Origin: Bacteroidota bacterium
GTDB lineage: Bacteria > Bacteroidota > Bacteroidia > Chitinophagales > Saprospiraceae
Direction: 5' to 3'
NCBI GenBank assembly: GCA_016234735.1
Contig: JACRAN010000338.1
Location: forward strand, 11,441-75,440
DNA length: 64,000 bases
The number at the start of each line of letters is the position of its first letter. Within the stretch, counting starts at the first letter, position 1. This document shows positions 4,274 to 26,148 of this stretch, one piece after another. Both the position numbers and the translations under genes were made by a program. The notes under the pieces were generated by a model that was given only the letters and a program-made list of their open reading frames with translations, ran no database searches and had not been told where the DNA came from.

Positions 4274-4311
4274 TTCAGATTTTAGACCTAAGATATTAGA
4301 CTTTAGATGGG
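4274..4311 (-). promoter_or_regulatory. conserved pre-start leader element, family 1 (copy upstream of galE)
   Basis: The minus strand reads TCCCATCTAAAGTCTAATATCTTAGGTCTAAAATCTG, ending about 17 nt before the galE ATG. It is roughly 80 percent identical to 15941-15978 upstream of rsmE. Confidence 0.5.
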
Positions 4312-4462
4312 AATGGAGAACGGATGAAACGGATTTTGCGGATTGAAACGGATATTCTTTTTATTTGACCCAGGAAATTACATGGAATAAACTTTCGTGT
4401 AAAACAAAAAAAATCCGTTCACATCAGTTGTATCCGTTTCATCCGTTCTCCAATCCTATCTA
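4304..4462. repeat. ~155-bp palindromic (MITE-like) intergenic element, copy 1
   Basis: ~30-bp terminal inverted repeats: TAGATGGGAATGGAGAACGGATGAAACGGAT, and at the other end ATCCGTTTCATCCGTTCTCCAATCCTATCTA. The arms are tandem (G)AAACGGAT words. A second copy lies at 9652-9804. Confidence 0.75.
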
Positions 4463-6512: not shown

Positions 6513-6881
6513 TGAGTCCCTTCGAAAACGCTGTTTTACTTTGAGGGAATGGGTTCCCCCGTTGGCAAAAGTTCGAGCAAGTGTTGAGCGAAGCGGCACC
6601 CGCCACCCCATCCCTGATTCCTCATCCCTCGTCCCTAAACCTCTGCACAGGCGTGTTCAGGAAGGGAGACCTCCATCCCCGGATGGCTTTTTTTGCAGGA
6701 AAAAAGAAAGCAACGCCGCAATGCCGGCCAGAAATTCTAAATTTGCCATATCACAAAGGCAAAATACATGGAAACCAACGACCTGACTTTCCTCAACCAA
6801 TTGAAAATCTCCCTGTCGGAAAACGAGACGGACACCGTCATCGATCAGTTGACCACGTACTAGGAGAACGATGAAACCGAG

Positions 6882-8534
6882 TTGCTCGACGAACTCATCA
6901 GCCATAAAAGCCGCTGGTTGGACATCAACAAGCAACAACGGTTGGGGGTGCTCGCCATGGATGATTTCAATGTGGCCCGCAACCAGATTACGTTTGCGCT
7001 CATCGGGTTCATTTCGGCACTTCAGAAGAAAATCAGGAAGCGCACCCTGTCGCCGTTCCAGTACGGGGAGGTAGCGACCGATTCGCACAGTGTTCAGCCT
7101 TCGGCTTCCACAACGGTTACGCCGAAGGTTACGGAACTCGTGGACGAGGGCAACCGAAAATTCAACGAAAAAGACTTCCAGGGTGCGCTTGAGTTGTTCG
7201 AGGAAGCCATCAAGGCCGATGGCTCCGTTGCCTTGCTTTACTCCAACCGGGGCCTCACGTTGTACAACCTCGGCCATGTGGACAAGGCCATGCAGGATTT
7301 CGACCGGGCCATCAAGCTCGACCCTGCTTTTGCGATGGCCTACATGAACCGTGGATTAGTAAAATACGAACAGCTCAACAAGTTGCAGGAAGCCCTTCGG
7401 GATTACACGCATGCCATCAACCTCGAACCGCAGAACAGCCTGGCCTATTTCAACCGGGGCATGGCGTTCATCACGCTGAACGACTACGACCGGGCCATCG
7501 ACGACTTCAACACGGTGCTGAACATCGACCCTGCCAATGCCGAAGCCTACATCAACCGGGGGCTTTGCAAACTGAATTCGCAGCGCTACAATGAGTCGGT
7601 AGAAGATTTTTCCAAAGCCATCCGCCTGAAAGGCGAAACGGAACTCGGCTACCTGAACCGGGGCCTGGCCTACTACTACCTCAATGACTACCAGTCGGCG
7701 CTGGCCGACTACCAGCAGACGCTGAAAATGAACCCGTACTCCGGGGAGGCGTACCGGCTCATCGGACTGATTCATTCCATGTCGGGCGAGTACGGCGAGT
7801 CCATCCCGTTTTACGACCATGCCATCAAGCTGGGCAACGACGACCAGTGGAGCTACCTCAACCGTGCCTTGGCCAAAACGCAAATCGAACAGTATGCCGA
7901 AGCCGTGGCCGATTACCAAAAAACGATAGAACTCGACCCTTTCAACCTGGACGGATGGTCGAGCCGGGGGCTAAATTTTTACCACCTGGGCGAGTACACC
8001 GTAGCGGAGGAATGCCTGATAAAAGCGACGAAAATCAACGCCAACCACCGCCCGACGCACAGCAATCTTGGTGTGCTTTACTACCAAACCGGGAAGTACA
8101 ACGATGCCATCAAGCACTTCCTGACAGCCATGAAGATTTCAAACCCGGACGATGAAACGCTGCTCCAACTGACCGGCACCTGCTGGTACCACCTCGGCAT
8201 CATCGACCAGTCAGTGGCATATTTTAAAAAATCCATCGAAGCTGACCCCAACCGCTCGATGGCCTGGTACTGGTACGGCGTGGCCCTGGAGGAAACGGGC
8301 GATAAACAAACCGCCATGGAATGCTACACTCATTCCATCCAACTTGACCCGCAGGGCAGTTACCTTTCTTACAACAACCGGGGCGTGTTGAAATACAACG
8401 CCGGTGACAACAAGGGCGCTATCGCCGATTATCAGGCGACGCTGGCTATCGTACCTACTTTTGAAACGACCTTGAAAAATTTGAAATTGGCAAAAGATGC
8501 CGAAGGTGGCGGAATTTTCAATTGGCTGAAATAG
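6882..8534 (+). CDS. tetratricopeptide-repeat protein (N-terminal region interrupted by in-frame TAG at 6861-6863)
   Basis: At least 10 canonical 34-aa TPR units (e.g. AYMNRGLVKYEQLNKLQEALRDYTHAINLEPQN). The same reading frame is open from the ATG at 6768 apart from one TAG. Confidence 0.8.
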   Translation: MLDELISHKSRWLDINKQQRLGVLAMDDFNVARNQITFALIGFISALQKKIRKRTLSPFQYGEVATDSHSVQPSASTTVTPKVTELVDEGNRKFNEKDFQGALELFEEAIKADGSVALLYSNRGLTLYNLGHVDKAMQDFDRAIKLDPAFAMAYMNRGLVKYEQLNKLQEALRDYTHAINLEPQNSLAYFNRGMAFITLNDYDRAIDDFNTVLNIDPANAEAYINRGLCKLNSQRYNESVEDFSKAIRLKGETELGYLNRGLAYYYLNDYQSALADYQQTLKMNPYSGEAYRLIGLIHSMSGEYGESIPFYDHAIKLGNDDQWSYLNRALAKTQIEQYAEAVADYQKTIELDPFNLDGWSSRGLNFYHLGEYTVAEECLIKATKINANHRPTHSNLGVLYYQTGKYNDAIKHFLTAMKISNPDDETLLQLTGTCWYHLGIIDQSVAYFKKSIEADPNRSMAWYWYGVALEETGDKQTAMECYTHSIQLDPQGSYLSYNNRGVLKYNAGDNKGAIADYQATLAIVPTFETTLKNLKLAKDAEGGGIFNWLK

Positions 8535-8553
8535 TTGCATGGTTGCATGGTTC

Positions 8554-8613
8554 CATTGCTGCATGGTTTCATTGTCCCGGAAAGCAATTGAACAATGAAA
8601 CTATGCAGCAATG
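8554..8613. terminator. long tandem-word hairpin between convergent genes
   Basis: 21-bp stem with 20/21 paired: CATTGCTGCATGGTTTCATTG (8554-8574) against CAATGAAACTATGCAGCAATG (8593-8613). The loop is 18 nt. The arms are made of 8-nt words (TTGCATGG-like). Confidence 0.65.
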
Positions 8614-8620
8614 AAACAAT

Positions 8621-9550
8621 TCACCCCTTCCCGTACAACTCCCTGAGTTTTTTAAGCAAACGCAACAGCTTGATGTTCAGCGTTTTATTGGCATTGAAGA
8701 AAATGCCGTTGACGGTAATCCAGTCTTCCTGCCGTTTGATGTCCTCTAAGTTTTTATAGTACACCCGCTGTTTTTTTTCAAACGGCATTTTCCAGTAGAT
8801 ACAATCACGGGTCATGGCAAAGCCGTCCTTGCAGGTACCGAAGGCGGAGAGGTCGCAGATGAAGTAAATGGATTCGCCCTTTTGCGGGGAGAGGAAGTTT
8901 TGGGCAGCGTTTTTCAGCTTGTTGGCGGGCATGGTCACGAAGTCGGTGTAAACGGTTTCCTGTTCGTTGTCGAAGTCGAGATAGGTCAGGATGAGTTCAC
9001 CCGGGCTGATTTTTTCAACAGTCATGCCCTGGTATTTCAGGATGGCTTCCGGGAAAACCGCCTCGTTGAGGTCTTCGCAATACCGGACCATGAAATAATC
9101 GAGCAGCTCCTCGAAAGCAGGGGTGGTGAGTTTGGTGCGGGCCTGGTCGTCCGGCAGGTGCTGTACCTGTTCGCCCAATTGTTTGATGCGGAAATCGACG
9201 CTCGACCTGAAATCGCTCTTGTAGAATCGGTCGATGTACGCACTGTGCAAAGCCGGGTTGTGCTCCTCTTTCAGCCGCCGCTCGAAAGCCAGGCTGAAAC
9301 GGTCGGCCATTTCCTGCTCGGCGTTATCGGTGTGGGTGGTGTCGAAAAGGTCGTTCAGTTTGGTTTTTGGCGGTTCTTTTTTTGGAGTTGGGAAAAGCAG
9401 TCCGCAATTCGAGCAGGCAGGGGCATGCAGGTCGTTTTCGGTGCCGCAGTTGGGGCAGTCAAACGTCTCCTCGATGGCGGGCGTGGCGCAAAACGGGCAG
9501 AACCTCGCATCGTCCGGGATGGGTTTTTGACAGGCTCGACAGTTTTTCAT
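8621..9550 (-). CDS. zinc-ribbon domain-containing hypothetical protein
   Basis: The N-terminus carries two CxxC...CxxC ribbons (CRACQKPIPDDARFCPFC and CPNCGTENDLHAPACSNC). The remaining ~250 aa have no motif I recognise. Confidence 0.7.
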   Translation of the reverse strand: MKNCRACQKPIPDDARFCPFCATPAIEETFDCPNCGTENDLHAPACSNCGLLFPTPKKEPPKTKLNDLFDTTHTDNAEQEMADRFSLAFERRLKEEHNPALHSAYIDRFYKSDFRSSVDFRIKQLGEQVQHLPDDQARTKLTTPAFEELLDYFMVRYCEDLNEAVFPEAILKYQGMTVEKISPGELILTYLDFDNEQETVYTDFVTMPANKLKNAAQNFLSPQKGESIYFICDLSAFGTCKDGFAMTRDCIYWKMPFEKKQRVYYKNLEDIKRQEDWITVNGIFFNANKTLNIKLLRLLKKLRELYGKG

Positions 9551-9651
9551 CGCTCTTTTTCTTGTTTTAATGCCCGGCGAAGTTAAAGAAAAGCCGCCCC
9601 AAATTTTAAAAACCTTGCGTCGGTTGGCCTGTTGTTTTTACCTTCACTTTC

Positions 9652-9804
9652 AGATAGGATGGGAGAACGGATGAAACGGATGAAACAGATTTGAACGGAT
9701 TTTTTTAAAATAAACCCACAGTAAATTGACTGAGGAATTTGCTCAAAAAAAAATCCGTTTCAATCCGCAAAATCCGTTTCATCCGTTGTCCAATCCCGTC
9801 CTAT
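9652..9804. repeat. ~155-bp palindromic (MITE-like) intergenic element, copy 2
   Basis: AGATAGGATGGGAGAACGGATGAAACGGATGAAACAGAT at one end and ATCCGTTTCAATCCGCAAAATCCGTTTCATCCGTTGTCCAATCCC at the other. Same architecture and termini as 4304-4462. Confidence 0.75.
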
Positions 9805-10435
9805 GCTTTCGCTCATGGAAAAACCTGGTGCCAAAAAAACGCCCGGCGAGTACGACAATTTCACCTTCCATCCGTACAACGTGATGCTGATGTTGACGCT
9901 AATGGCCATCACGGCATTGTTCCTGGCGCTGTCCATTTCGTTTGTGTATTCGAGGGTGCAGAGCGGCATCGGGGCTATCAGCATCCCCCGGCTGTTCATG
10001 TTCAACACATCCCTGCTCTTGGCCAGCAGCGTGGCGATGGTGCGGGCCAAAAAAGCCTACTTGGACGACCAGACACAGACCTATCAAAACTGTCTGCAAG
10101 CTACCATCGGGCTGACGCTGTTGTTTTTGGTGCTGCAAATCGTGGCATGGAGGCAACTCTTCCAGCAGAACATTTTCCCGGAGACGGACAACTCGGCAGG
10201 ATACCTCTACGTGTTGTCCATGCTGCATTTTGCGCACGTGGTAGCGGGGCTGCCCTTCCTTTTCCGTTTCTTGTCCACTGCCAAAAAACACATGAAAGAA
10301 CCCGTGACGGTGCTGGTTTATTTCTCCGACCCGGAGAAGCGCCTGCGCCTGCACCTGCTGTCCATCTACTGGCACTTCCTCGACGGGCTTTGGGTTTTCC
10401 TGGTGCTTTTTCTGTTGGCCAACCAATTGATTTAA
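9803..10435 (+). CDS. cytochrome c oxidase subunit III family protein
   Basis: 210 aa with multiple TM helices. Conserved subunit-III-like C-terminus HFAHVVAGL ... YWHFLDGLWVFL. No other cox genes are adjacent. Confidence 0.75.
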   Translation: MLSLMEKPGAKKTPGEYDNFTFHPYNVMLMLTLMAITALFLALSISFVYSRVQSGIGAISIPRLFMFNTSLLLASSVAMVRAKKAYLDDQTQTYQNCLQATIGLTLLFLVLQIVAWRQLFQQNIFPETDNSAGYLYVLSMLHFAHVVAGLPFLFRFLSTAKKHMKEPVTVLVYFSDPEKRLRLHLLSIYWHFLDGLWVFLVLFLLANQLI

Positions 10436-10497
10436 TTGTTGATGGTTGATGGTTAATTGTTTGAAGCCTCAATCAACAATCAACCATCAACAATTAA
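10432..10497. terminator. long tandem-word hairpin between convergent genes
   Basis: 19-bp perfect stem: TTAATTGTTGATGGTTGAT (10432-10450) against ATCAACCATCAACAATTAA (10479-10497). The arms are 7-nt words (TTGATGG/TTAATTG). The upstream gene's stop codon lies inside the left arm. Confidence 0.65.
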
Positions 10498-10500
10498 CAA

Positions 10501-11508
10501 TCACCAAATATTCACCTCCGGCGACAAGCCGATGCCGAACTTTTCGGCCACCGAATCTTGAATCTTTTTGGCCAAGGCCAGGATTTCTGCGCCGGTGGCG
10601 TTCCCGTAGTTCACCAGCACGAGCGCCTGACGTGCGTGGCAACCGGCGTCGCCGAAGCGCTTGCCCTTCCAGCCCGCCTGCTCGATGAGCCAGCCTGCCG
10701 GAACCTTCACCCGGCCAGTGGGCAGCGGGTAGCTGACGATGCCGGGGAATTGCTGCTCAAGTTGCTGAAAATGAGCAACTTCAATCTCCGGGTTTTTGAA
10801 AAAACTGCCTGCGTTGCCGATTTCCGCCGGGTCGGGCAGCTTGCTCTGCCGGATGTGGACGACGGCACGTCCCACATCGGCGATGGTCGGCTCCGCAATG
10901 CCCCACTCCGCCAGCGTCCGCTGGATGTCGCCATAGCCGGTGCGGGTTTGAGGCGATTTTGAGAGTCTCAAAAAAACTTTGGTGATGAAAAATTTACCGC
11001 TGAGTTCCTGTTTGAAAATGCTGTCCCGGTAGCCGAACCGACAGTCGGCATGGTTGAAAACCTTCACTTCGCCCGTCGCCAGTTCCACCGCTTCCAACCG
11101 CTCGAACACGTCCTTCAACTCCACGCCGTAAGCCCCGATGTTCTGGATCGGGGCTGCCCCGACCGTACCTGGGATAAGCGAGAGGTTCTCGATGCCGCCC
11201 AGCCCCCGCCCGATGCACCACTGCACCCACTCGTGCCAGACGACCCCACCGCCTGCCGCCACAAGCACCGTCGCAACGTTCTCCTCCACGATGCCGATGC
11301 CGCCTACTTCGTTTTTAATGACCAGGCCGGGGAGGTCTCTGGTCAGCAGCAGGTTGCTGCCGCCGCCGAGGATGTGGAGTGGGCGTTCGTTTTCCGCCAG
11401 CACTTGCTGCAACTCCGCCACAGTTTTCACCGCCACCAACGACTCGGCCCTCGCCTCCAGGCCGAAGGTGTTGAGTTTTTTCAGTGAAAAATGCCGCCTG
11501 AATTGCAT
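10501..11508 (-). CDS. murB: UDP-N-acetylenolpyruvoylglucosamine reductase
   Basis: 335 aa. FAD-binding N-terminus (LNTFGLEARAE...ILGGGSNLL) and C-terminal MurB motif (AGSFFKNP ... PAGWLIEQAGWKG). Confidence 0.92.
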   Translation of the reverse strand: MQFRRHFSLKKLNTFGLEARAESLVAVKTVAELQQVLAENERPLHILGGGSNLLLTRDLPGLVIKNEVGGIGIVEENVATVLVAAGGGVVWHEWVQWCIGRGLGGIENLSLIPGTVGAAPIQNIGAYGVELKDVFERLEAVELATGEVKVFNHADCRFGYRDSIFKQELSGKFFITKVFLRLSKSPQTRTGYGDIQRTLAEWGIAEPTIADVGRAVVHIRQSKLPDPAEIGNAGSFFKNPEIEVAHFQQLEQQFPGIVSYPLPTGRVKVPAGWLIEQAGWKGKRFGDAGCHARQALVLVNYGNATGAEILALAKKIQDSVAEKFGIGLSPEVNIW

Positions 11509-11648
11509 GTCGTGCGAATTGCGTTAGTTGGTCGCAAAGGTATTTTTGCTTTTAAAAAAAACGGCGATAAACTTACCCGCTTTGCAGTTTTCTCTGCGGT
11601 GCCGTTTACTTTTGCGCCGCAATCCGTCACCAATCACTACTCGCAAAA

Positions 11649-12128
11649 ATGACCTTCAACCAGTTTTTGAAAATTTTCCCGGAAGTCACCCTGCCCGTTT
11701 CCATCACCGAAGAGAGCGCCTCGGCCTTCAGTCTCGACAACGACCCGTTTACAGGCCAGATGATTGAGGAGTTCCTGCTGCCGCTGGAACCGGACATGGA
11801 CGACCTGACGGAATTCGTGCCTGGCTTCCGCATCGCCGGGCTGAACGACATCCACGCCGTGTTGTACTGGAAAGCTGGGCTTTTGAGCTACCAGTACGTG
11901 CTGGTAACGTTTGAAAAAAGCGGAAAACCCATCGACCGAAAAGTGATTGCAGGCACAGTCTCCGATGGGAAAATCATCGTCCGCTCCGTGGCCAGGATCG
12001 ATGAATATTTGACCATCTACATCGTCAGCGGCGTAGCCAGCGGCTCCGACGACCTCTTCGATGCGAACGAAAGCACCGCCCGTGAACTGGAACTGCTGCC
12101 CGATGGCCGGATGGTGGAACTGGCGTGA
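11649..12128 (+). CDS. hypothetical protein
   Basis: 159-aa ORF with an ATG start and coding-like composition. Its stop overlaps the next ORF's GTG start (GTGA). No motif recognised. Confidence 0.55.
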   Translation: MTFNQFLKIFPEVTLPVSITEESASAFSLDNDPFTGQMIEEFLLPLEPDMDDLTEFVPGFRIAGLNDIHAVLYWKAGLLSYQYVLVTFEKSGKPIDRKVIAGTVSDGKIIVRSVARIDEYLTIYIVSGVASGSDDLFDANESTARELELLPDGRMVELA

Positions 12129-12742
12129 GTCTGAAAATTTGCAAATCCAATTTTCACATGCAGAGTTTTGAACAGGAAATCAAAGCCTTCCTCAAGGCGC
12201 AAAATCTGGAGTTCAAGGACAATTCCGATTCCTTCAAACGGCTTGATTTTTCGGTGAAATTGGATGAGCAGTGGAGCTTCCGCTTCGATGCCAAAGAAAA
12301 ACGCCAGCGCTACAACCTTCAAAATTGGCAACTCACCTCCGAACAGGAACCGTTCGCTTTCATCATCGACGACCTGGCGGCCCGGAAAATACTGGCGTAT
12401 GCGCCCTACTCCGGCATGGTCATCCGGGACAACCTGCTGGGTGGCTACTACTTTTACAGTGTGCTCGACCTCTTCCTCATGCCCAAAACCCGCGTGAACC
12501 GTCCCATCGAAAAGAACCTGAAAGCGATGAAAGGCAAGTGGGTCATTGACTTCCGCAACGGCCAGAAATGCGGTTCGATGGCCGCCGTGCTTTCCTTGTT
12601 CCGGCAGTACATCACCAAACGGGAAGATTTTTTCATCAACATCCTCGAATGTTTCGGCGACTACCACGGAGAGGACATCGGCGAGCGGGGCGAGGTGCGC
12701 CGAGCGGAATATTGGGACACCGATGTGAAGGCTACTCGTTGA
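12125..12742 (+). CDS. hypothetical protein (possible PD-(D/E)xK-like motif)
   Basis: 205-aa ORF. The start is GTG 12125 (overlapping the upstream stop) or ATG 12158. The segment RLDFSV...FRFDAKEK resembles a D...(D/E)xK nuclease core, but that is only a weak guess. Confidence 0.5.
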   Translation: MSLKICKSNFHMQSFEQEIKAFLKAQNLEFKDNSDSFKRLDFSVKLDEQWSFRFDAKEKRQRYNLQNWQLTSEQEPFAFIIDDLAARKILAYAPYSGMVIRDNLLGGYYFYSVLDLFLMPKTRVNRPIEKNLKAMKGKWVIDFRNGQKCGSMAAVLSLFRQYITKREDFFINILECFGDYHGEDIGERGEVRRAEYWDTDVKATR

Positions 12743-12759
12743 ATTTACGATTTACGAAT

Positions 12760-12796
12760 GACGATTTACGATTCTGAAATTCAATCGTAAATCGTC
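12760..12796. terminator. tandem-word hairpin between convergent genes
   Basis: 13-bp perfect stem GACGATTTACGAT/ATCGTAAATCGTC with an 11-nt loop. It is flanked by more copies of the 7-nt word GATTTAC and its complement. Confidence 0.6.
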
Positions 12797-12808
12797 AATC
12801 CAAAATCG

Positions 12809-13282
12809 TCAATAGTTTATTCCCACTTTTTTGAAGATGAAATGCAACAGCCACGCCGGGCCGATGAGCAGGAACTGGAGGTCTTCGAGGAACGACGGCT
12901 TTTTCCCTTCGATTTTATGGCCGATGAACTGGCCAATCCATGCCATCACAAAGATGAAAATGGAGATGAGTGCCAGCATTTTGGCATCGCCGAAAGTGGC
13001 CTCGTAGATGGCGTTGTTGCCGTACAGCATGGCACTGCCAATCAGCACGAACCCCAGAAACATGGTCAGCGACAGCCGAAAGTAGTACACCAGCGCAGCC
13101 GCCAGCGCTACTGTCGCCCAGTTCGTGAACAGCCCACGCTCTGTGAAAAAAGGGATGGAAAACAGCAGCCCGAACAGGCTGAACATGATGGAAGGGACGC
13201 AAATCCAGTGGATGAATTTGTTGATGCCGTTCTGGTGGCTTTCGCCGTACTTGGCGAGCAGGAGGTCGATTGTTTTGGCCAT
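12809..13282 (-). CDS. DUF962 / Mpo1-like membrane protein
   Basis: 157 aa from the ATG at 13282. It has the HQNGINKFIHWICVPSIMF motif and four hydrophobic helices. The longer track ORF merely reads through the tRNA-Leu gene. Confidence 0.75.
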   Translation of the reverse strand: MAKTIDLLLAKYGESHQNGINKFIHWICVPSIMFSLFGLLFSIPFFTERGLFTNWATVALAAALVYYFRLSLTMFLGFVLIGSAMLYGNNAIYEATFGDAKMLALISIFIFVMAWIGQFIGHKIEGKKPSFLEDLQFLLIGPAWLLHFIFKKVGINY

Positions 13283-13387
13283 GATGCAAGTTTTTGAATG
13301 CCCGGTAAATGTAGCAAAACCATGACTTTTTTCATCAATCAGCCACAAAAACAAAAAGCCCACAGCCTGAACTGCGAGCCTTTTTCG

Positions 13388-13471
13388 TGCCGAAAGAGGG
13401 ACTCGAACCCTCACGCCCGTGAAGACACACGCCCCTGAAACGTGCGCGTCTACCAATTCCGCCATTTCGGC
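13388..13471 (-). tRNA. tRNA-Leu (anticodon CAG)
   Basis: The minus strand reads GCCGAAATGGCGGAATTGGTAGACGCGCACGTTTCAGGGGCGTG...GGTTCGAGTCCCTCTTTCGGCA. It has a 7-bp acceptor stem, a long variable arm, anticodon loop TTCAGGG and a T-loop GGTTCGAGTCC. CCA is not encoded. Confidence 0.9.
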
Positions 13472-13492
13472 TGGGGATAGTTTTGAGTTATG

Positions 13493-13549
13493 AGTTATGA
13501 GTTATGAGTTAGTGAGTTGATGTAACTCACTAACTCATAACTCATAACT
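13493..13549. repeat. 26-bp-stem tandem-word hairpin between the two tRNA-Leu genes
   Basis: (GAGTTAT)x3-GAGTTAGTGAGTT, loop gatgt, then AACTCACTAACTCATAACTCATAAC. The stem is perfect over 25-26 bp. Confidence 0.8.
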
Positions 13550-13563
13550 TCTAACCCCCAACG

Positions 13564-13646
13564 TACCGAAGGTGGGACTCGAACCCACACGTAGTTGCCT
13601 ACACTGGATTTTGAATCCAGCGCGTCTACCATTCCGCCACTTCGGC
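13564..13646 (-). tRNA. tRNA-Leu (anticodon CAA)
   Basis: The minus strand reads GCCGAAGTGGCGGAATGGTAGACGCGCTGGATTCAAAATCCAG...GGTTCGAGTCCCACCTTCGGTA. Anticodon loop is TTCAAAA, with a long variable arm. CCA is not encoded. Confidence 0.9.
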
Positions 13647-13728
13647 ATTTTTCCTTCAAAAAAAACTTGCTAACCACCTGATTCAGAGTATTTTACATGA
13701 ACAAAAACAGGGATAGTGGGTACTCCAA

Positions 13729-14268
13729 TCAGTGTGCTTCCGTCGAAGCGGGTGCAAATCTATCCAAATTTTCTTTTATTCTCAAAAGGTACCTTCTTTT
13801 AAAAAAAAATTCCCGCACGGGTTCCAAAACCCCAGGTTGGGCGGTTTCGTTCCGGTAGTTTTCCAGCGTGGGTTTCACTTCCTCGTAGAGCGAGGCTTCC
13901 AATTCCACCACTTGATTTGTCGCCGTGTCAAAAATGTTTTGGTCAAAACCGAACTCCAATTCCATGATGGCTTCGTTGATGTCCATCATTTCGAGGAGGA
14001 ATTCCTGCGGGATTTCGTTTTTGCCTTCTTCTTTCAGGATGCCATGGAGGTCGAGGATGTATTTGGTCCGCCGGTCGAAGTCGGCCAGCGTCTGGTAGGC
14101 TTCGTTGTTGAACGTGGAAAGTTCCAGCGCATGGCCTTGTTTTTCATCCGATTCCAAGGTGAAATAGTCGGGATGAAACCGTTTACTGTTTTGCAAAAAC
14201 CGCCGTTTCAAATCCGCTTCGTCCGGGAAGAACGACACCGGGATTTCAAAAAACTCGAAGTAATTCAT
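13729..14268 (-). CDS. hscB: Fe-S cluster co-chaperone HscB-like J-domain protein
   Basis: 179 aa. The N-terminal J-domain carries an HPD motif (LKRRFLQNSKRFHPDYF), and the C-terminal region is helical, typical of HscB. Confidence 0.8.
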   Translation of the reverse strand: MNYFEFFEIPVSFFPDEADLKRRFLQNSKRFHPDYFTLESDEKQGHALELSTFNNEAYQTLADFDRRTKYILDLHGILKEEGKNEIPQEFLLEMMDINEAIMELEFGFDQNIFDTATNQVVELEASLYEEVKPTLENYRNETAQPGVLEPVREFFFKRRYLLRIKENLDRFAPASTEAH

Positions 14269-14278
14269 TCACTTGGTG

Positions 14279-14325
14279 ATTTGTTGATTTGGTTATTTGT
14301 TTATCCGAAAACCAAATCAACAAAT
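14279..14325. terminator. tandem-word hairpin after rseP
   Basis: 14-bp stem ATTTGTTGATTTGG/CCAAATCAACAAAT with a 19-nt loop. The arms are 8-nt words (GTTGATTT-like). It lies between the rseP stop and the hscB start. Confidence 0.55.
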
Positions 14326-14341
14326 AATCAAATCAACATGG

Positions 14342-15733
14342 TCAGAACAGCCTTGAAATGTCAAGCCCCAGCGCAAAAACCATCAAAGAAATCAGGATGA
14401 CGAAGCCCACCATCGTTGAGATTTCCATGAATTTGTCGCTGGGTTTCTTGCCGGTGAGCACCTCGAACAGCAGGAACATCACGTGGCCGCCATCGAGCGC
14501 AGGGATGGGCAGCAGGTTGATGAGCGCCAGCACCAGCGAGAGCATCGCCGTCATTTGCCAAAAGGTTTCCCAGTCCCATGTGGAAGGGAACATTGAGCCG
14601 ATGGTGATGAAGCTGCCGAGGCTGTCCGTTACTTTGAGATGTCCGGTGAACATCCTGCCGTAGGCTTTCAGTTGCGACCCCAAAAAGTTCATGCCCCTGT
14701 GGAACCCGGCGGGAATAGCCGCCAAAAAGTTGTATTCCTGGGTCTCCGTTTTGAAAGAATCGCTCAGTTTACCGGAAATGCTGGCCCCAATCCTGCCATT
14801 TTCATCTGTTCGCAAAGCCAGGTCGAGCGTATCCACCATACTGGGCGTTAGCCTTCGCAATACCCGCACCTGGATGGTGGTATCTTTTTGTGGATTTTTG
14901 GAAACGAGGTCATAAAAATCCTCAAAATACGAGGTCGGAGTTCCGTTCAGGCCAATGATTTGGTCGCCTTTTTGGATACCGGCTTTCTCGGCAGGCGATG
15001 GCTCGCACTTTTTCCAAAAAAGGAAGCCCTTGCAATATTTGCCGTACCCTTCAACGATGAATGGCCGCCGCAGGCCGTAGAGCGTCACGCCTTTGTTGCC
15101 ATATTTGGAGAGGCCACTGGCGATTTCCTCGCTGATGGGGAGCTTGATTTTCTCGCCGTTGCGCTCCACCGTGATGCTCCGGGCACCGTTGATGACGATT
15201 TGGCCCTTGACGAAATTGGGATTGAATTTTTTCAAATCCATCGTGTCCACGGCCACCACCTGGTCGCCGGGGCGGATGCCGACGACGAGGCCGAGCGAGT
15301 CGGGCTGCACACCGTAGGTCACGTTTTTGGTGGGCAGGTACTCCTCGCCCCATGCCCAAAACATCATGGCGTAAATCAGGAAGCCGAGGATGAAGTTGAC
15401 GGTGACACCACCGAGCATGATGACGAGGCGCTGCCACGCCGGTTTGGAGCGGAACTCCCAGGGCTGTGGCGGTTCCTTCATCTGTTCCGTGTCGAAGCTC
15501 TCGTCCACCATGCCGGAAATTTTCACGTAGCCGCCCAACGGCAGCCAGCCGATGCCGTATTCCGTTTCACCGATTTTCTTTTTGAACAACTCAAACCAGG
15601 GGTCGAAGAACAGGTAGAATTTTTCCACTCTGGTTTTGAACCACTTGGCGGGCAGGAAGTGCCCCATTTCGTGCAGCACGATGAGAATGGAGAGGCTCAA
15701 CACCAATTGCCCGACCTTGACGAGAATATCCAT
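14342..15733 (-). CDS. rseP: RIP (site-2) zinc metalloprotease RseP
   Basis: 463 aa from the ATG at 15733. The HEMGHF zinc motif sits in the first TM helix. There are PDZ-like central segments and a C-terminal NLLPIPALDGG motif. Confidence 0.9.
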   Translation of the reverse strand: MDILVKVGQLVLSLSILIVLHEMGHFLPAKWFKTRVEKFYLFFDPWFELFKKKIGETEYGIGWLPLGGYVKISGMVDESFDTEQMKEPPQPWEFRSKPAWQRLVIMLGGVTVNFILGFLIYAMMFWAWGEEYLPTKNVTYGVQPDSLGLVVGIRPGDQVVAVDTMDLKKFNPNFVKGQIVINGARSITVERNGEKIKLPISEEIASGLSKYGNKGVTLYGLRRPFIVEGYGKYCKGFLFWKKCEPSPAEKAGIQKGDQIIGLNGTPTSYFEDFYDLVSKNPQKDTTIQVRVLRRLTPSMVDTLDLALRTDENGRIGASISGKLSDSFKTETQEYNFLAAIPAGFHRGMNFLGSQLKAYGRMFTGHLKVTDSLGSFITIGSMFPSTWDWETFWQMTAMLSLVLALINLLPIPALDGGHVMFLLFEVLTGKKPSDKFMEISTMVGFVILISLMVFALGLDISRLF

Positions 15734-15740
15734 ATTGTTT

Positions 15741-15820
15741 ATAGATGTGAGGGGTGAGAGGCGAGAAAGTGAGGTTTTAAATTGCACCCACTTTCTAAAA
15801 ACAACCCACGACTCAATAAT
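15741..15820 (-). promoter_or_regulatory. conserved pre-start element, family 2 (copy upstream of rseP)
   Basis: Plus strand: ATAGATGTGAGGGGTGAGAGGCGAGAAAGTGAGGTTTTAAATTGCACCCACTTTCTAAAAACAACCCACGACTCAATAA. It begins 8 nt from the rseP ATG and is homologous to 26031-26148. It contains the hairpin AGAAAGTG/CACTTTCT. Confidence 0.55.
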
Positions 15821-15940
15821 TTGCTTTGGAAAAATGCAGGAAGATGGCCTACCCGCTGGCTCGTCCAAATTTTTTGAAGCCGCAAAAGTAATGAGAGTTT
15901 GGACTTTTGACAACTGACATTGCTGCCGGGTGCCCCATTC

Positions 15941-15978
15941 TAAAGTCTAAAGTCTCTGGTCTGAAATCTCCTCTTATT
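15941..15978 (+). promoter_or_regulatory. conserved pre-start leader element, family 1 (copy upstream of rsmE)
   Basis: CCCCATTCTAAAGTCTAAAGTCTCTGGTCTGAAATCTC is made of 7-nt words (TCTAAAG). It ends shortly before the rsmE ATG and is homologous to 4274-4311 upstream of galE. Confidence 0.5.
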
Positions 15979-15986
15979 TTTGCCCC

Positions 15987-16697
15987 ATGATTTTGTTTTA
16001 CACGACCGACATCCGGGGCGGTTCCGCCTGGTTTTCCGAGGAGGAAGCCCGCCATTGCTCGCAGGTGTTGCGGAGGAAAACAGGCGATGTCGTTCAGTTT
16101 CTGGATGGGCTGGGCGGCTGGTACGAGGGCGTGATTTCGGAGGTGAACAAGCGGCAGGTGGTGGTGGAAGTCACCGACCGGAGAGCGGGCACCGACCTCC
16201 GCAATTTCCGGCTGCACCTCGCCATCGCCCCCACTAAAAACATCGACCGCTTCGAGTGGTTCCTCGAAAAAGCGACGGAAATCGGCATCCATGAAATCAC
16301 GCCGCTGCAAACCGGGCACTCCGAACGGACGAAACTCCGCTACGACCGTTTGGAAAAAATCCTGCTCGCCGCCATGAAACAATCCATGCGAACCTGGCTG
16401 CCCAAGCTGAACGAACTCACTGATTTTGAGCATTTTATAAAAAAAACTGAAACCCCGGACGGCCACGCCCGTTTCATTGCCCATTGCCGGGAAGAAAATT
16501 TGCCGCACCTGAAAAACAACTGTCCGGCAGCTACGGACGTTACTTTGCTCATCGGACCGGAGGGCGATTTTTCACCGGCTGAAATCTCGCTGGCCAACGA
16601 GGCTGGTTTCAAAAACATAAGCCTGGGCACTGCCCGGCTGCGCACCGAAACGGCGGGCATCGTGGCCTGCCACATCATCAATTTGCTAAACGACTGA
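15987..16697 (+). CDS. rsmE: 16S rRNA (uracil1498-N3)-methyltransferase
   Basis: 236 aa. It has the RsmE pattern: an N-terminal PUA-like domain, then the C-terminal SPOUT knot LLIGPEGDFSPAEI ... LGTARLRTETA. Confidence 0.88.
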   Translation: MILFYTTDIRGGSAWFSEEEARHCSQVLRRKTGDVVQFLDGLGGWYEGVISEVNKRQVVVEVTDRRAGTDLRNFRLHLAIAPTKNIDRFEWFLEKATEIGIHEITPLQTGHSERTKLRYDRLEKILLAAMKQSMRTWLPKLNELTDFEHFIKKTETPDGHARFIAHCREENLPHLKNNCPAATDVTLLIGPEGDFSPAEISLANEAGFKNISLGTARLRTETAGIVACHIINLLND

Positions 16698-16703
16698 CGA
16701 AAC

Positions 16704-17354
16704 ATGAAGCTGTTTTCCCTGCTTATTTTGCTGTTCCCTGCTTTTTTTCAACAGGAAAATGCGCCGCTCAAACTTGCCCTGATGAAGTACAACGGCGGCG
16801 GCGACTGGTACGCCAACCCTACTTCGCTGACCAACCTCGCCCGGTTTTGCAACGACAACCTCGGCACCAACTTCGACACCGACTACGCAACCGTGGAGGT
16901 GGGCAGCGCCGAGCTTTTCAATTTTCCTTTCGTCCACATGACGGGCCATGGCAACGTGGTTTTTTCGGATGCCGAGGCCGAAAACCTGCGGATTTACCTC
17001 ATCGGCGGCGGTTTTTTGCACATCGACGACAACTACGGCCTCGACCCGTTCGTGCGGCCTGCGATGAAAAAGGTGTTCCCTGAATTGCAGTTCGTGGAGT
17101 TGCCCTACCAACACCCGGTTTACCATCAAAAATTTGACTTCAAAAACGGCTTGCCCAAAATCCACAAGCACGACGACAAGCCCTCGCAGGGCTTCGGGCT
17201 GTTTTGGGAGGGGCGGTTGGTGTGTTTTTACAGCTACCAATGCGACCTCGGCGACGGTTGGGAAGACCAGCCGGTACACAACGACCCGGAGGAAAAACGC
17301 CAACAGGCTCTGAAAATGGGAGCGAACCTGGTGCAGTTTGTTTTTCAGCAGTGA
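16704..17354 (+). CDS. DUF4159 domain-containing protein
   Basis: Signal peptide followed by the motif KYNGGGDWYANPTSLTNL, characteristic of DUF4159. 216 aa. Confidence 0.75.
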   Translation: MKLFSLLILLFPAFFQQENAPLKLALMKYNGGGDWYANPTSLTNLARFCNDNLGTNFDTDYATVEVGSAELFNFPFVHMTGHGNVVFSDAEAENLRIYLIGGGFLHIDDNYGLDPFVRPAMKKVFPELQFVELPYQHPVYHQKFDFKNGLPKIHKHDDKPSQGFGLFWEGRLVCFYSYQCDLGDGWEDQPVHNDPEEKRQQALKMGANLVQFVFQQ

Positions 17355-17414
17355 TTCCTTGGTTGATGAAGGTCGATTTAGGTTGATAATCAACCTTCTG
17401 CCACTAACCTGATT

Positions 17415-26030: not shown

Positions 26031-26148
26031 TTTAGATGTGAGAAGTGAGAGGATGAGAAGGTGAGAAGGTGAGAATTGAGTGCTGAAGTGCTGGATTTCA
26101 GCGTTTTAAATTCTAACCACTTTCTCAAAACAACTCACGGCTCAATGG
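26031..26148 (-). promoter_or_regulatory. conserved pre-start element, family 2 (copy upstream of xseA)
   Basis: Plus strand: TTAGATGTGAGAAGTGAGAGGATGAGAAGGTGAGAAGGTGAGAA...TTTTAAATTCTAACCACTTTCTCAAAACAACTCACGGCTCAATGG. It begins 6 nt from the xseA GTG. It aligns with 15741-15820 apart from a ~35-nt insertion. Confidence 0.55.

Follow-up and report, generated by a model that had tools for sequence, protein, structure and literature searches.

What are the long hairpins that stand at many gene boundaries in the 64,000-nucleotide stretch analysed here (the window), taken from a Saprospiraceae genome of the Bacteroidota (assembly GCA_016234735.1, labelled G000 below; contig JACRAN010000338.1, C278:11441-75440), and why are their arms themselves tandem repeats of a word of 7-8 nt? 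The original prediction, made on the window, had proposed either a lineage-specific mechanism, slippage plus palindromisation, or a protein or RNA that recognises periodic stems; overall, this interpretation is partly supported by what follows. Taking the window together with the rest of the assembly (4.88 Mb, 359 contigs, 99% complete) and with related genomes, we think it probable, though well short of certain, that the window hairpins are gene-less members of a class of dispersed, selfish palindromic repeats that resemble 23S rRNA intervening sequences (IVS) and have a cognate PF05635 protein. Known as the family of the "23S rRNA intervening-sequence protein" (S23p), PF05635/TIGR02436 has Avd among its relatives. 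An element of this class consists of ~4 copies of a G/T-rich word of 7-8 nt, a short unique loop and ~4 complementary copies of the word.

The periodic arms are a feature of the whole genome. At a Tandem Repeats Finder (TRF) score of at least 40, the genome has 715 arrays of period 7 and 282 of period 8, compared with 0 and 2 in the block-shuffled genome. Arms are periodic in 307 of the 1170 non-overlapping hairpins with a stem of at least 14 bp, as against 8.3 after arm shuffling, so the periodicity pointed out in the window is strongly enriched genome-wide (period 7 in 218 of the hairpins, period 8 in 80). An inverted partner lies within ~70 nt of 718 of 1257 period-7/8 arrays, whereas the reversed but not complemented control gave 6. 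Long tandem-word hairpins number about 300-360 in the genome, and 713 of 1149 period-7 arrays lie outside open reading frames (ORFs), where only ~14% of the genome is found. A typical element is ~79 nt long, with a median gap of 13 nt between its arrays and a mean pairing of 92%. Arm length peaks at 28-34 nt, which equals four units (130 of 267), and the stem averages 26 bp, with a GC content of 40% against 54% for the genome. The 5′ arm is made up of 32% G, 35% T, 25% A and 7.5% C, and the 3′ arm is its complement.

The elements also have a polarity. The G-rich arm comes first in 255 hairpins and the C-rich arm in 12 (p about 1e-60), and the same bias is seen in convergent spacers (57:0), tandem spacers (118:8), divergent spacers (11:2) and inside ORFs (52:2). 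Truly non-periodic hairpins of the same genome show no polarity (176:171), and one-armed arrays follow the same geometric rule as the hairpins. Since the polarity ignores gene orientation, it cannot come from gene-expression signals, and its source must be the generating mechanism or a strand-symmetric recognition step. Selection acting on the start regions of genes, which was also considered as its cause, is ruled out by the counts in convergent spacers and in ORFs. A G-quadruplex (G4) reading of the arms was rejected too, because most words, for example GATTTAC and GAGTTAT, cannot form a G4.

The idea of a protein that recognises periodic stems gains support from genes that lie inside hairpins built of the same words and whose protein type appears to follow the word. 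The genome has 16 intact PF05635 genes, which match TIGR02436 ("four helix bundle protein") and PDB 2RLD (five chains). Fourteen of the 16 are visibly bracketed by tandem-word arrays, G-first on either gene strand, and 11 have a flanking inverted-repeat score of at least 18, compared with 1.1% of 179 control small genes. The cassettes of this genome thus show the arrangement that defines an ORF-bearing IVS, in which a long inverted-repeat stem surrounds a PF05635/TIGR02436 gene; the window hairpins, having no gene, are at most derivatives of such S23p cassettes. Nearly every cassette has a word of its own, GATTTAC being common to two. Five cassette words, GATTTAC (twice), AGTTATG, TGATTTGT, TTCATTGT and GATTGTT, match families of the window hairpins or are their near relatives; a further one is ATT[G/T]CGG.

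Judged from sequence comparison, protein type and word stay paired across species and one other genus. ATT[G/T]CGG arms accompany every orthologue of the protein encoded by the cassette on contig C279, both in seven further species (identity 74-92%) and in another genus (64%). Matches at 55-58% identity have GATTTAC arms, like the nearest paralogue type in G000, and more distant matches mostly have other words, three of them, at 42-46% identity, having GATTTAC-like arms. No PF05635 pair of the genome is more similar than that encoded by the two GATTTAC cassettes (80% identity, against a median of 32% over all pairs), and in general related PF05635 proteins tend to pair with related words. The arm variant of the cassette is the species' dominant genome-wide variant in 7 of 7 other species; in G000 the cassette arms are mixed. 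In G024 the ATTKCGG cassette probably occupies the same locus as in G000, according to a comparison of flanking peptides that were mis-framed.

In the window, direct reading, TRF and a custom hairpin scan gave the same loci, and the sites listed by the original prediction do carry hairpins with periodic arms, the last of them only weakly. The hairpin at 8535-8620 (stem of ~26 bp, G-rich arm first, words TTGCATGG drifting to TTTCATTG) occupies the entire convergent spacer between the stop of a tetratricopeptide repeat (TPR) gene (8532-8534) and that of a zinc-ribbon gene (8621-8623). Its RNA fold has a dG of -38 to -41 and a z of about -8, and its arms are similar to those of the PF05635 cassette C156:4136 (TTCATTGT/CAATGAAA). 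Between the convergent COX3-like gene and murB, at 10432-10497, the words TTGATGG/TTAATTG form a 28-bp stem with 26 positions paired (z -9); we confirmed that the TAA stop at 10433-10435 lies within its 5′ arm, and a related word, GATTGTT, makes up the arms of the C75:5629 cassette. The hairpin at 12743-12813, also between convergent genes, belongs to the GATTTAC family and has a 31-bp stem with one variant unit, GAATGAC, in third place as is typical of the family; its cognate PF05635 cassettes are C146:24986 and C172:6958. A member of the GAGTTAT family lies between two tRNA-Leu genes at 13479-13556 (stem of 26-28 bp, RNA fold dG -44.6, z -14 to -16), its cognate cassette being C146:28865; the same tRNA spacer in G017 is without the hairpin. 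At 14271-14338, words TGATTTGT/TTATTTGT form a 23-bp stem between rseP, whose stop is the complement of 14342-14344, and hscB, whose start codon is at 14268. The right arms of this hairpin (ACAAATAATCAAATCAACA) and of the C25:62437 cassette (ACAAATAATCAAATCAGCA) are the same but for one base. The sixth site, 17361-17398, between a DUF4159 gene and yidD, is a weak or decayed member in which a degenerate GGTTGAT array accompanies a 7-bp hairpin (folding z -2.6 on the plus strand and -6.8 on the minus strand). The array of four CATCCCT units at 6609-6640 is one-armed, as had been stated; it is C-rich and, in TRF, represents the complement strand of the AGGGATG family. The RNA folds of the window hairpins have energies of -25 to -45 kcal/mol (z about -7 to -15 relative to shuffles). 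In Rfam only the two tRNAs scored above threshold; the hairpins gave just sub-threshold matches to microRNA precursors, which were taken as noise.

Genome-wide, the words fall into families, 83 distinct words being found among 298 periodic hairpins scanned. Large families are those of ATTTCGG, GATTTAC, AATTGGG, GAGTTAT and AGGGATG, with genome-wide arm counts of 99 for GATTTAC, 61 for AGGGATG and 48 for GAGTTAT. The statement that each window site has a different word therefore has to be revised, because GATTTAC, GAGTTAT and AGGGATG represent large families and one word (TTGATGG), in different rotations, is found at both 10432 and 17361. For TTGCATGG and TGATTTGT no other exact three-unit run was found in the genome, and both resemble the arms of gene-bearing cassettes. 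Within a family, arms are near-identical across loci, including a shared variant unit in the GATTTAC arms; loops and flanks share nothing, and no target-site duplication is visible in the flanks. Arms are about as complementary to those of other loci of their family as to their partner at the same locus (e.g. 0.85 vs 0.86). At least 12 further species of the genus have arms of the GATTTAC family, with up to 100% identity over ~30 nt, whereas the DNA of the flanking genes is only ~70% identical. Among 201 genomes of the order, ATTTCGG is abundant only in G000 and G066 and is present in eight others, and among 80 Bacteroidota murB neighbourhoods periodic hairpins were seen in only a few Saprospiraceae, so the occurrence of the elements is patchy. 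The simpler account that the sites are copies of one known family, similar to repetitive extragenic palindromes (REP), is thus correct as to dispersed families shared across species and wrong as to their number, which is dozens and not one. A control word, GGCTTTA (ATTTCGG read backwards), proved abundant in tandem in G163, a genome of another family of the same order, with a strand imbalance of 18 vs 113 matches; other lineages have thus amplified other heptamers, apparently as one-armed arrays.

Elements turn over fast, and word variants evolve in concert across dispersed loci within a species. Two relatives that are ~94% identical over 36 kb of shared DNA have seven strongly divergent regions, four of which are arrays, and the differences in these arrays are unit-sized indels and wholesale word replacement. 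Exact (ATTTCGG)3 and (ATTGCGG)3 runs occur at 116:13 in G000, 39:0 in G005, 8:44 in G021, 13:40 in G024 and 9:37 in G012. Within pheT, the orthologous element of G000, G005 and G010 has T and that of G012, G014 and G004 has G, which in each of these six species is the dominant variant; G019 and G021 have a mixture of variants there. In the spacer orthologous to 12743, GATTTAC in G000 is replaced by (AGTTGGC)n in five species and by (CAATCCT)n in one; another species has 35 nt without an array, and G022 has 9 nt (TAGCCTTCA) and no hairpin. It had been asked whether words drift in orthologous spacers while structure is kept: the words are indeed replaced, but the structure is not always kept.

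Comparison with relatives also explains where the elements sit. At the 12125 junction the genes overlap in G000 and G004, and three relatives have arrays of 57-68 nt there. The rseP-hscB spacer, which holds the 14271-14338 hairpin in G000, measures 16 nt in G017, and operon junctions filled by elements are 0-16 nt in relatives. The median distance to stop codons is 1-3 nt; elements adjoin stop and start codons because the spacers they entered were tiny. Hairpins were found in 65 of 517 convergent, 140 of 1838 tandem and 15 of 528 divergent spacers. The elements are not intrinsic terminators, in agreement with the view that ordinary rho-independent terminators do not look like this. A T-tract (at least 6 T in the 8 nt downstream) follows only 3.4% of them, they lack the combination of short GC-rich stem and U-tract, and they are not restricted to the ends of transcription units, given the overlap junctions, the copies inside ORFs (below) and the rseP-hscB case. 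In the latter, the element ends 3 nt ahead of the hscB start codon inside a likely operon; the DnaJ domain of HscB begins at residue 3, which indicates that the ATG at 14268 is the true start. A role of the arrays as suppliers of stops in three frames after genes was considered and ruled out, since ATTTCGG and AGTTGGC, the commonest words, are free of stops.

Nor are the elements confined to gene boundaries, where they were first noticed: 35 paired hairpins lie in frame deep in long, high-scoring ORFs. The hosts include PheT, GltB, polyketide and nonribosomal peptide synthetases (PKS/NRPS), an SNF2 helicase, FG-GAP proteins, an M4 peptidase, histidine kinases and a glycosyltransferase, and Pfam domains are intact on either side of the insertions. 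Essential enzymes such as PheT and GltB thereby acquire extra peptide segments of 20-30 residues. Hairpins with stop-free words on both arms lie deep in ORFs in 29 of 100 cases and those with stop-containing words in 6 of 167; this dependence of survival on the word indicates insertion everywhere, followed by purifying selection, as for Rickettsia palindromic elements (PMC10969869). At one spot in an NRPS adenylation domain no two of the 12 species compared share a sequence; what they have is mostly visible tandem arrays, and in most of the 12 a C-rich array adjoins the conserved AYVIYTSG segment (A-domain motif AYVIYTSGSTG). In pheT, between FEFGKTY and EPQHLALF, 8 of 14 species have an ATT[T/G]CGG element; five have arms of ~4+4 units, one lacks exactly three units of the left arm (21 nt) and two retain the right arm only, and the loss of one arm in some species shows how one-armed arrays originate. 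Of the remaining species, two have short array-free linkers and four have other sequences at this site. In G024 the pheT site (locus L155) is occupied not by the ATTKCGG element but by another hairpin, CCTCCCCCCAGCCCCCTCCCAAGGAGGGGGAGC, which is not made of heptamers. A 9.7-kb PKS/NRPS ORF of G000 (C16:3-9698) carries at least four in-frame hairpins, translated as segments such as ISDFGFRISD...IRNPKSEIRN.

How could such elements spread? In the explanation that we favour, the PF05635 protein would bind runs of its own word and would promote the spread or homogenisation of the arrays in trans. Homologous recombination requires a length roughly that of the ~28-nt arms, which would permit ectopic gene conversion between them. 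Stems of 23-31 bp are long enough for RNase III, and where the 25-30-bp stems occur in RNA they might be cut by this enzyme, as are those of 23S rRNA IVS. The S23p protein of Xanthomonas is a homopentamer (PMC4990558), and by analogy a pentamer would fit arms of 4-5 units, with one word for each subunit. A wider proposal, which we put forward only tentatively and regard as possible and not as likely, is that each PF05635 pentamer reads 4-5 copies of its own word on the G-rich strand and directs the creation, homogenisation or spread of inverted arrays of it in trans without a transposase. Protein and word would then form a co-diversifying code, and the 23S rRNA IVS, the cyanobacterial short tandemly repeated repetitive (STRR) sequences, the Xanthomonas GGGAATC repeats and the heptamer excess of bacterial genomes in general would be one kind of mobile element.

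Several observations weigh against a cognate PF05635 protein as the agent. A gene and arms inherited as one unit could yield the correlation between protein and word without a functional link. The word-rich genomes G066 (117 ATTTCGG matches), G019 and G021 yielded no close orthologue of the cassette protein, and no gene-bearing copy of the AGGGATG family was identified in G000. The loops of gene-less elements are not derived from the cassette interior (mean z 0.3-0.4), so a simple origin by internal deletion, as for MITEs (miniature transposable elements with inverted repeats), is not supported; a MITE assignment was rejected, given that there is no visible duplication and no associated transposase, and that the loops are unrelated to the cassette interior. 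Also to be set on this side are the gene calls, which are crude and come from our own ORF scorer, and the genomes, all of which are draft assemblies of many contigs, apparently metagenome-assembled.

The alternatives have to account for the same data. The elements might be a mutational by-product without a dedicated protein or function, polymerase slippage with a preference for 7-8-nt units growing the arrays where DNA is unconstrained and intrastrand template switching (quasi-palindrome correction) mirroring them. The unit-sized indels and parallel word replacement between the ~94%-identical genomes and the in-frame 21-nt (three-unit) losses in pheT are what slippage would leave, and heptamer excess has been ascribed to it (Mrazek 2007, as summarised in PMC4679880). 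That part of the original prediction therefore stands for the indels. It does not extend to a polarity independent of context, to identical ~30-nt arms at dozens of unrelated loci and in other species, to species-wide sweeps of a variant or to the association of PF05635 type with word, and we judge slippage with template switching improbable as a full explanation. The polarity has a formal counterpart in the head-to-head geometry of fused telomeres, which raises the idea that the elements are scars left where double-strand breaks were healed, both 3′ ends being extended reiteratively as by telomerase; words of 7-8 nt rich in G and T, and loops that are unique like junction filler, would fit. 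More than 80 words, however, would require many templates, and neither an RVT_1 reverse transcriptase nor Ku was found in the 99%-complete genome, so that we give break healing almost no credence. Dispersed extragenic palindromes that form families with variable spacers, in a genome with a Y1_Tnp gene, recall REP and REPIN elements mobilised by a REP-associated tyrosine transposase (RAYT; Y1/HUH). This explanation is largely refuted and retains only a trace of probability: over 80 words stand against only two Y1 (PF01797) matches in the genome, no 5′ tetranucleotide is conserved among the arms, and the Y1/RAYT-type gene at C218:400-1100 has on both sides classical, non-periodic REP palindromes of its own (GCAACGGGTnTAAAACCCGTTGC), unrelated to the tandem-word hairpins.

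Two further readings give the hairpins a function in the host. As RNA structures at gene ends they could terminate transcription in both directions despite lacking a U-tract, or stabilise mRNA by blocking 3′ exonucleases. In favour of this, the stability of the stems is very high, the hairpins are enriched right after stop codons (at the 1-3 nt given above), and they are commoner per spacer in convergent and tandem than in divergent spacers. Set against this are the rarity of T-tracts and the 40% GC of the stems, the element 3 nt before the hscB start, the arrays at a junction that overlaps in other species, the 9-nt orthologous spacer without hairpin, the 35 copies inside ORFs and the quick turnover of words; taken together, they leave a role at gene ends very improbable. 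Host regulatory sites, acting as translational-coupling hairpins or as binding arrays for cold-shock or S1 proteins, find some encouragement in the 14271 stem, which base pairs the region after a stop with the region before a start, and in the proposed binding of heptamers by CspB and S1 (PMC4679880). But these elements also occur in convergent spacers, between tRNAs and within ORFs, and their presence varies among close relatives, which makes a regulatory origin barely credible.

The favoured explanation, IVS-like repeats with a cognate PF05635 protein, has its closest precedent in the ORF-bearing 23S rRNA IVS of Coxiella burnetii and Leptospira (PMC4990558). Those are regarded as selfish and have a long terminal inverted-repeat stem, variable heptamers and a four-helix-bundle ORF in the loop, an anatomy they have in common with the cassettes described here; the Coxiella burnetii IVS has a 28-bp stem cut by RNase III, tandem GACAGAT heptamers that vary in number between strains and an S23p ORF (PMC4990558). 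Unlike the rRNA elements, the one cassette read base by base, that on C279, lies between protein-coding genes, wedged exactly between the TGA stop of one and the ATG start of the next; many hairpins are inside genes, most copies (about 300) have no ORF, and the word families, each with its matching protein paralogue, run to dozens.

Heptameric repeats outside rRNA are the other relatives. In Xanthomonas, GGGAATC arrays have a four-unit mode and form 70-75 "convergent" pairs, one array per strand, close to stop codons (PMC4692102); heptameric STRR or long simple sequence repeats (LSSR) are also known as GGGGA(T/C)T in Nostoc (PMC4692102) and, in addition to cyanobacterial STRR, as TAACTGA in Beggiatoaceae (PMC4679880). 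The arrays of G000 are likewise over-represented, mainly intergenic tandem 7-nt units with a four-unit mode, and the G-rich strand is the coding strand just after stops; like those of Xanthomonas, they occur as converging G-rich pairs of ~4 units by stop codons. On the wording of PMC4692102, the convergent pairs can be read as the same G-first geometry, and a GGGAATT family is present in G000. The architecture is thus common to Xanthomonas, Nostoc and Coxiella (PMC4692102, PMC4990558) and not, as had been supposed, specific to a lineage. The STRR and LSSR reports deal with one or a few words, offer a G4 or translational reading, note under-representation in coding DNA and make no link to a protein, whereas the words here mostly cannot form G4 and copies lie in frame inside genes. 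With REP, bacterial interspersed mosaic elements (BIME) and REPIN-RAYT systems (PMC3116915), the elements share dispersed families of extragenic palindromes and a cognate gene flanked by the same repeats. They differ in that this gene encodes a four-helix bundle, in that the arms are periodic and in that the REP beside the only clear RAYT of the genome is another one; no Y1 gene flanked by the tandem-word repeats was found. Rickettsia palindromic elements (RPE; PMC10969869) are alike in behaviour, being selfish palindromes that are translated in frame in housekeeping genes, but they are about 100-150 bp long and have neither tandem words nor an associated protein (PMC10969869). Our literature search found no paper in which heptamer arrays and S23p-type genes are linked as a pair that co-varies, and none that describes hairpins of this sort in the reading frame of essential genes.

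Heptamer repeats (STRR, LSSR, Xanthomonas GGGAATC) and S23p ORFs have each been known for decades without explanation. G000 ties the two together through its hundreds of polar, word-built hairpins, its 16 PF05635 genes and protein-word pairs that seem to persist across genera, and makes it a testable question whether an S23p/Avd-like protein recognises and propagates its heptamer array. On the practical side, gene finders and terminator predictors will misread tandem-word elements.

Other arrays of the window may belong to the same class. The one-armed, G-rich array of five GTGAGAAG units at 26038-26080, upstream of a minus-strand gene, and that of 2.4 TCTAAAG units at 15939-15955, upstream of a plus-strand gene (both by TRF), are probably decayed members. 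Two palindromes of ~150 bp in divergent spacers, at 9652-9804 (more narrowly, 9658-9793) and 4304-4462, both with the G-rich arm first, are built of the 9-nt tandem word AACGGATGA around a non-conserved centre of ~60 nt, and are possibly members with a longer word, one that has only one exact three-unit run genome-wide. The genes that flank the window hairpins are ordinary housekeeping ones (TPR, zinc-ribbon, COX3-like, MurB, Mpo1-like, two tRNA-Leu, HscB, RseP, DUF4159, YidD); the relatives of MurB place the organism in the Saprospiraceae. Within 150 nt of a contig end we counted 60 period-7/8 arrays, with about 28 expected, and tandem-word repeats probably break the assembly. In G173 (locus L119, C22:15150-15700) a higher-order tandem array repeats units of ~60 nt at least seven times, each consisting of 4-5 ATT[T/G]CGG heptamers and a small TTCGGA-gaaa-TCCGAA hairpin.

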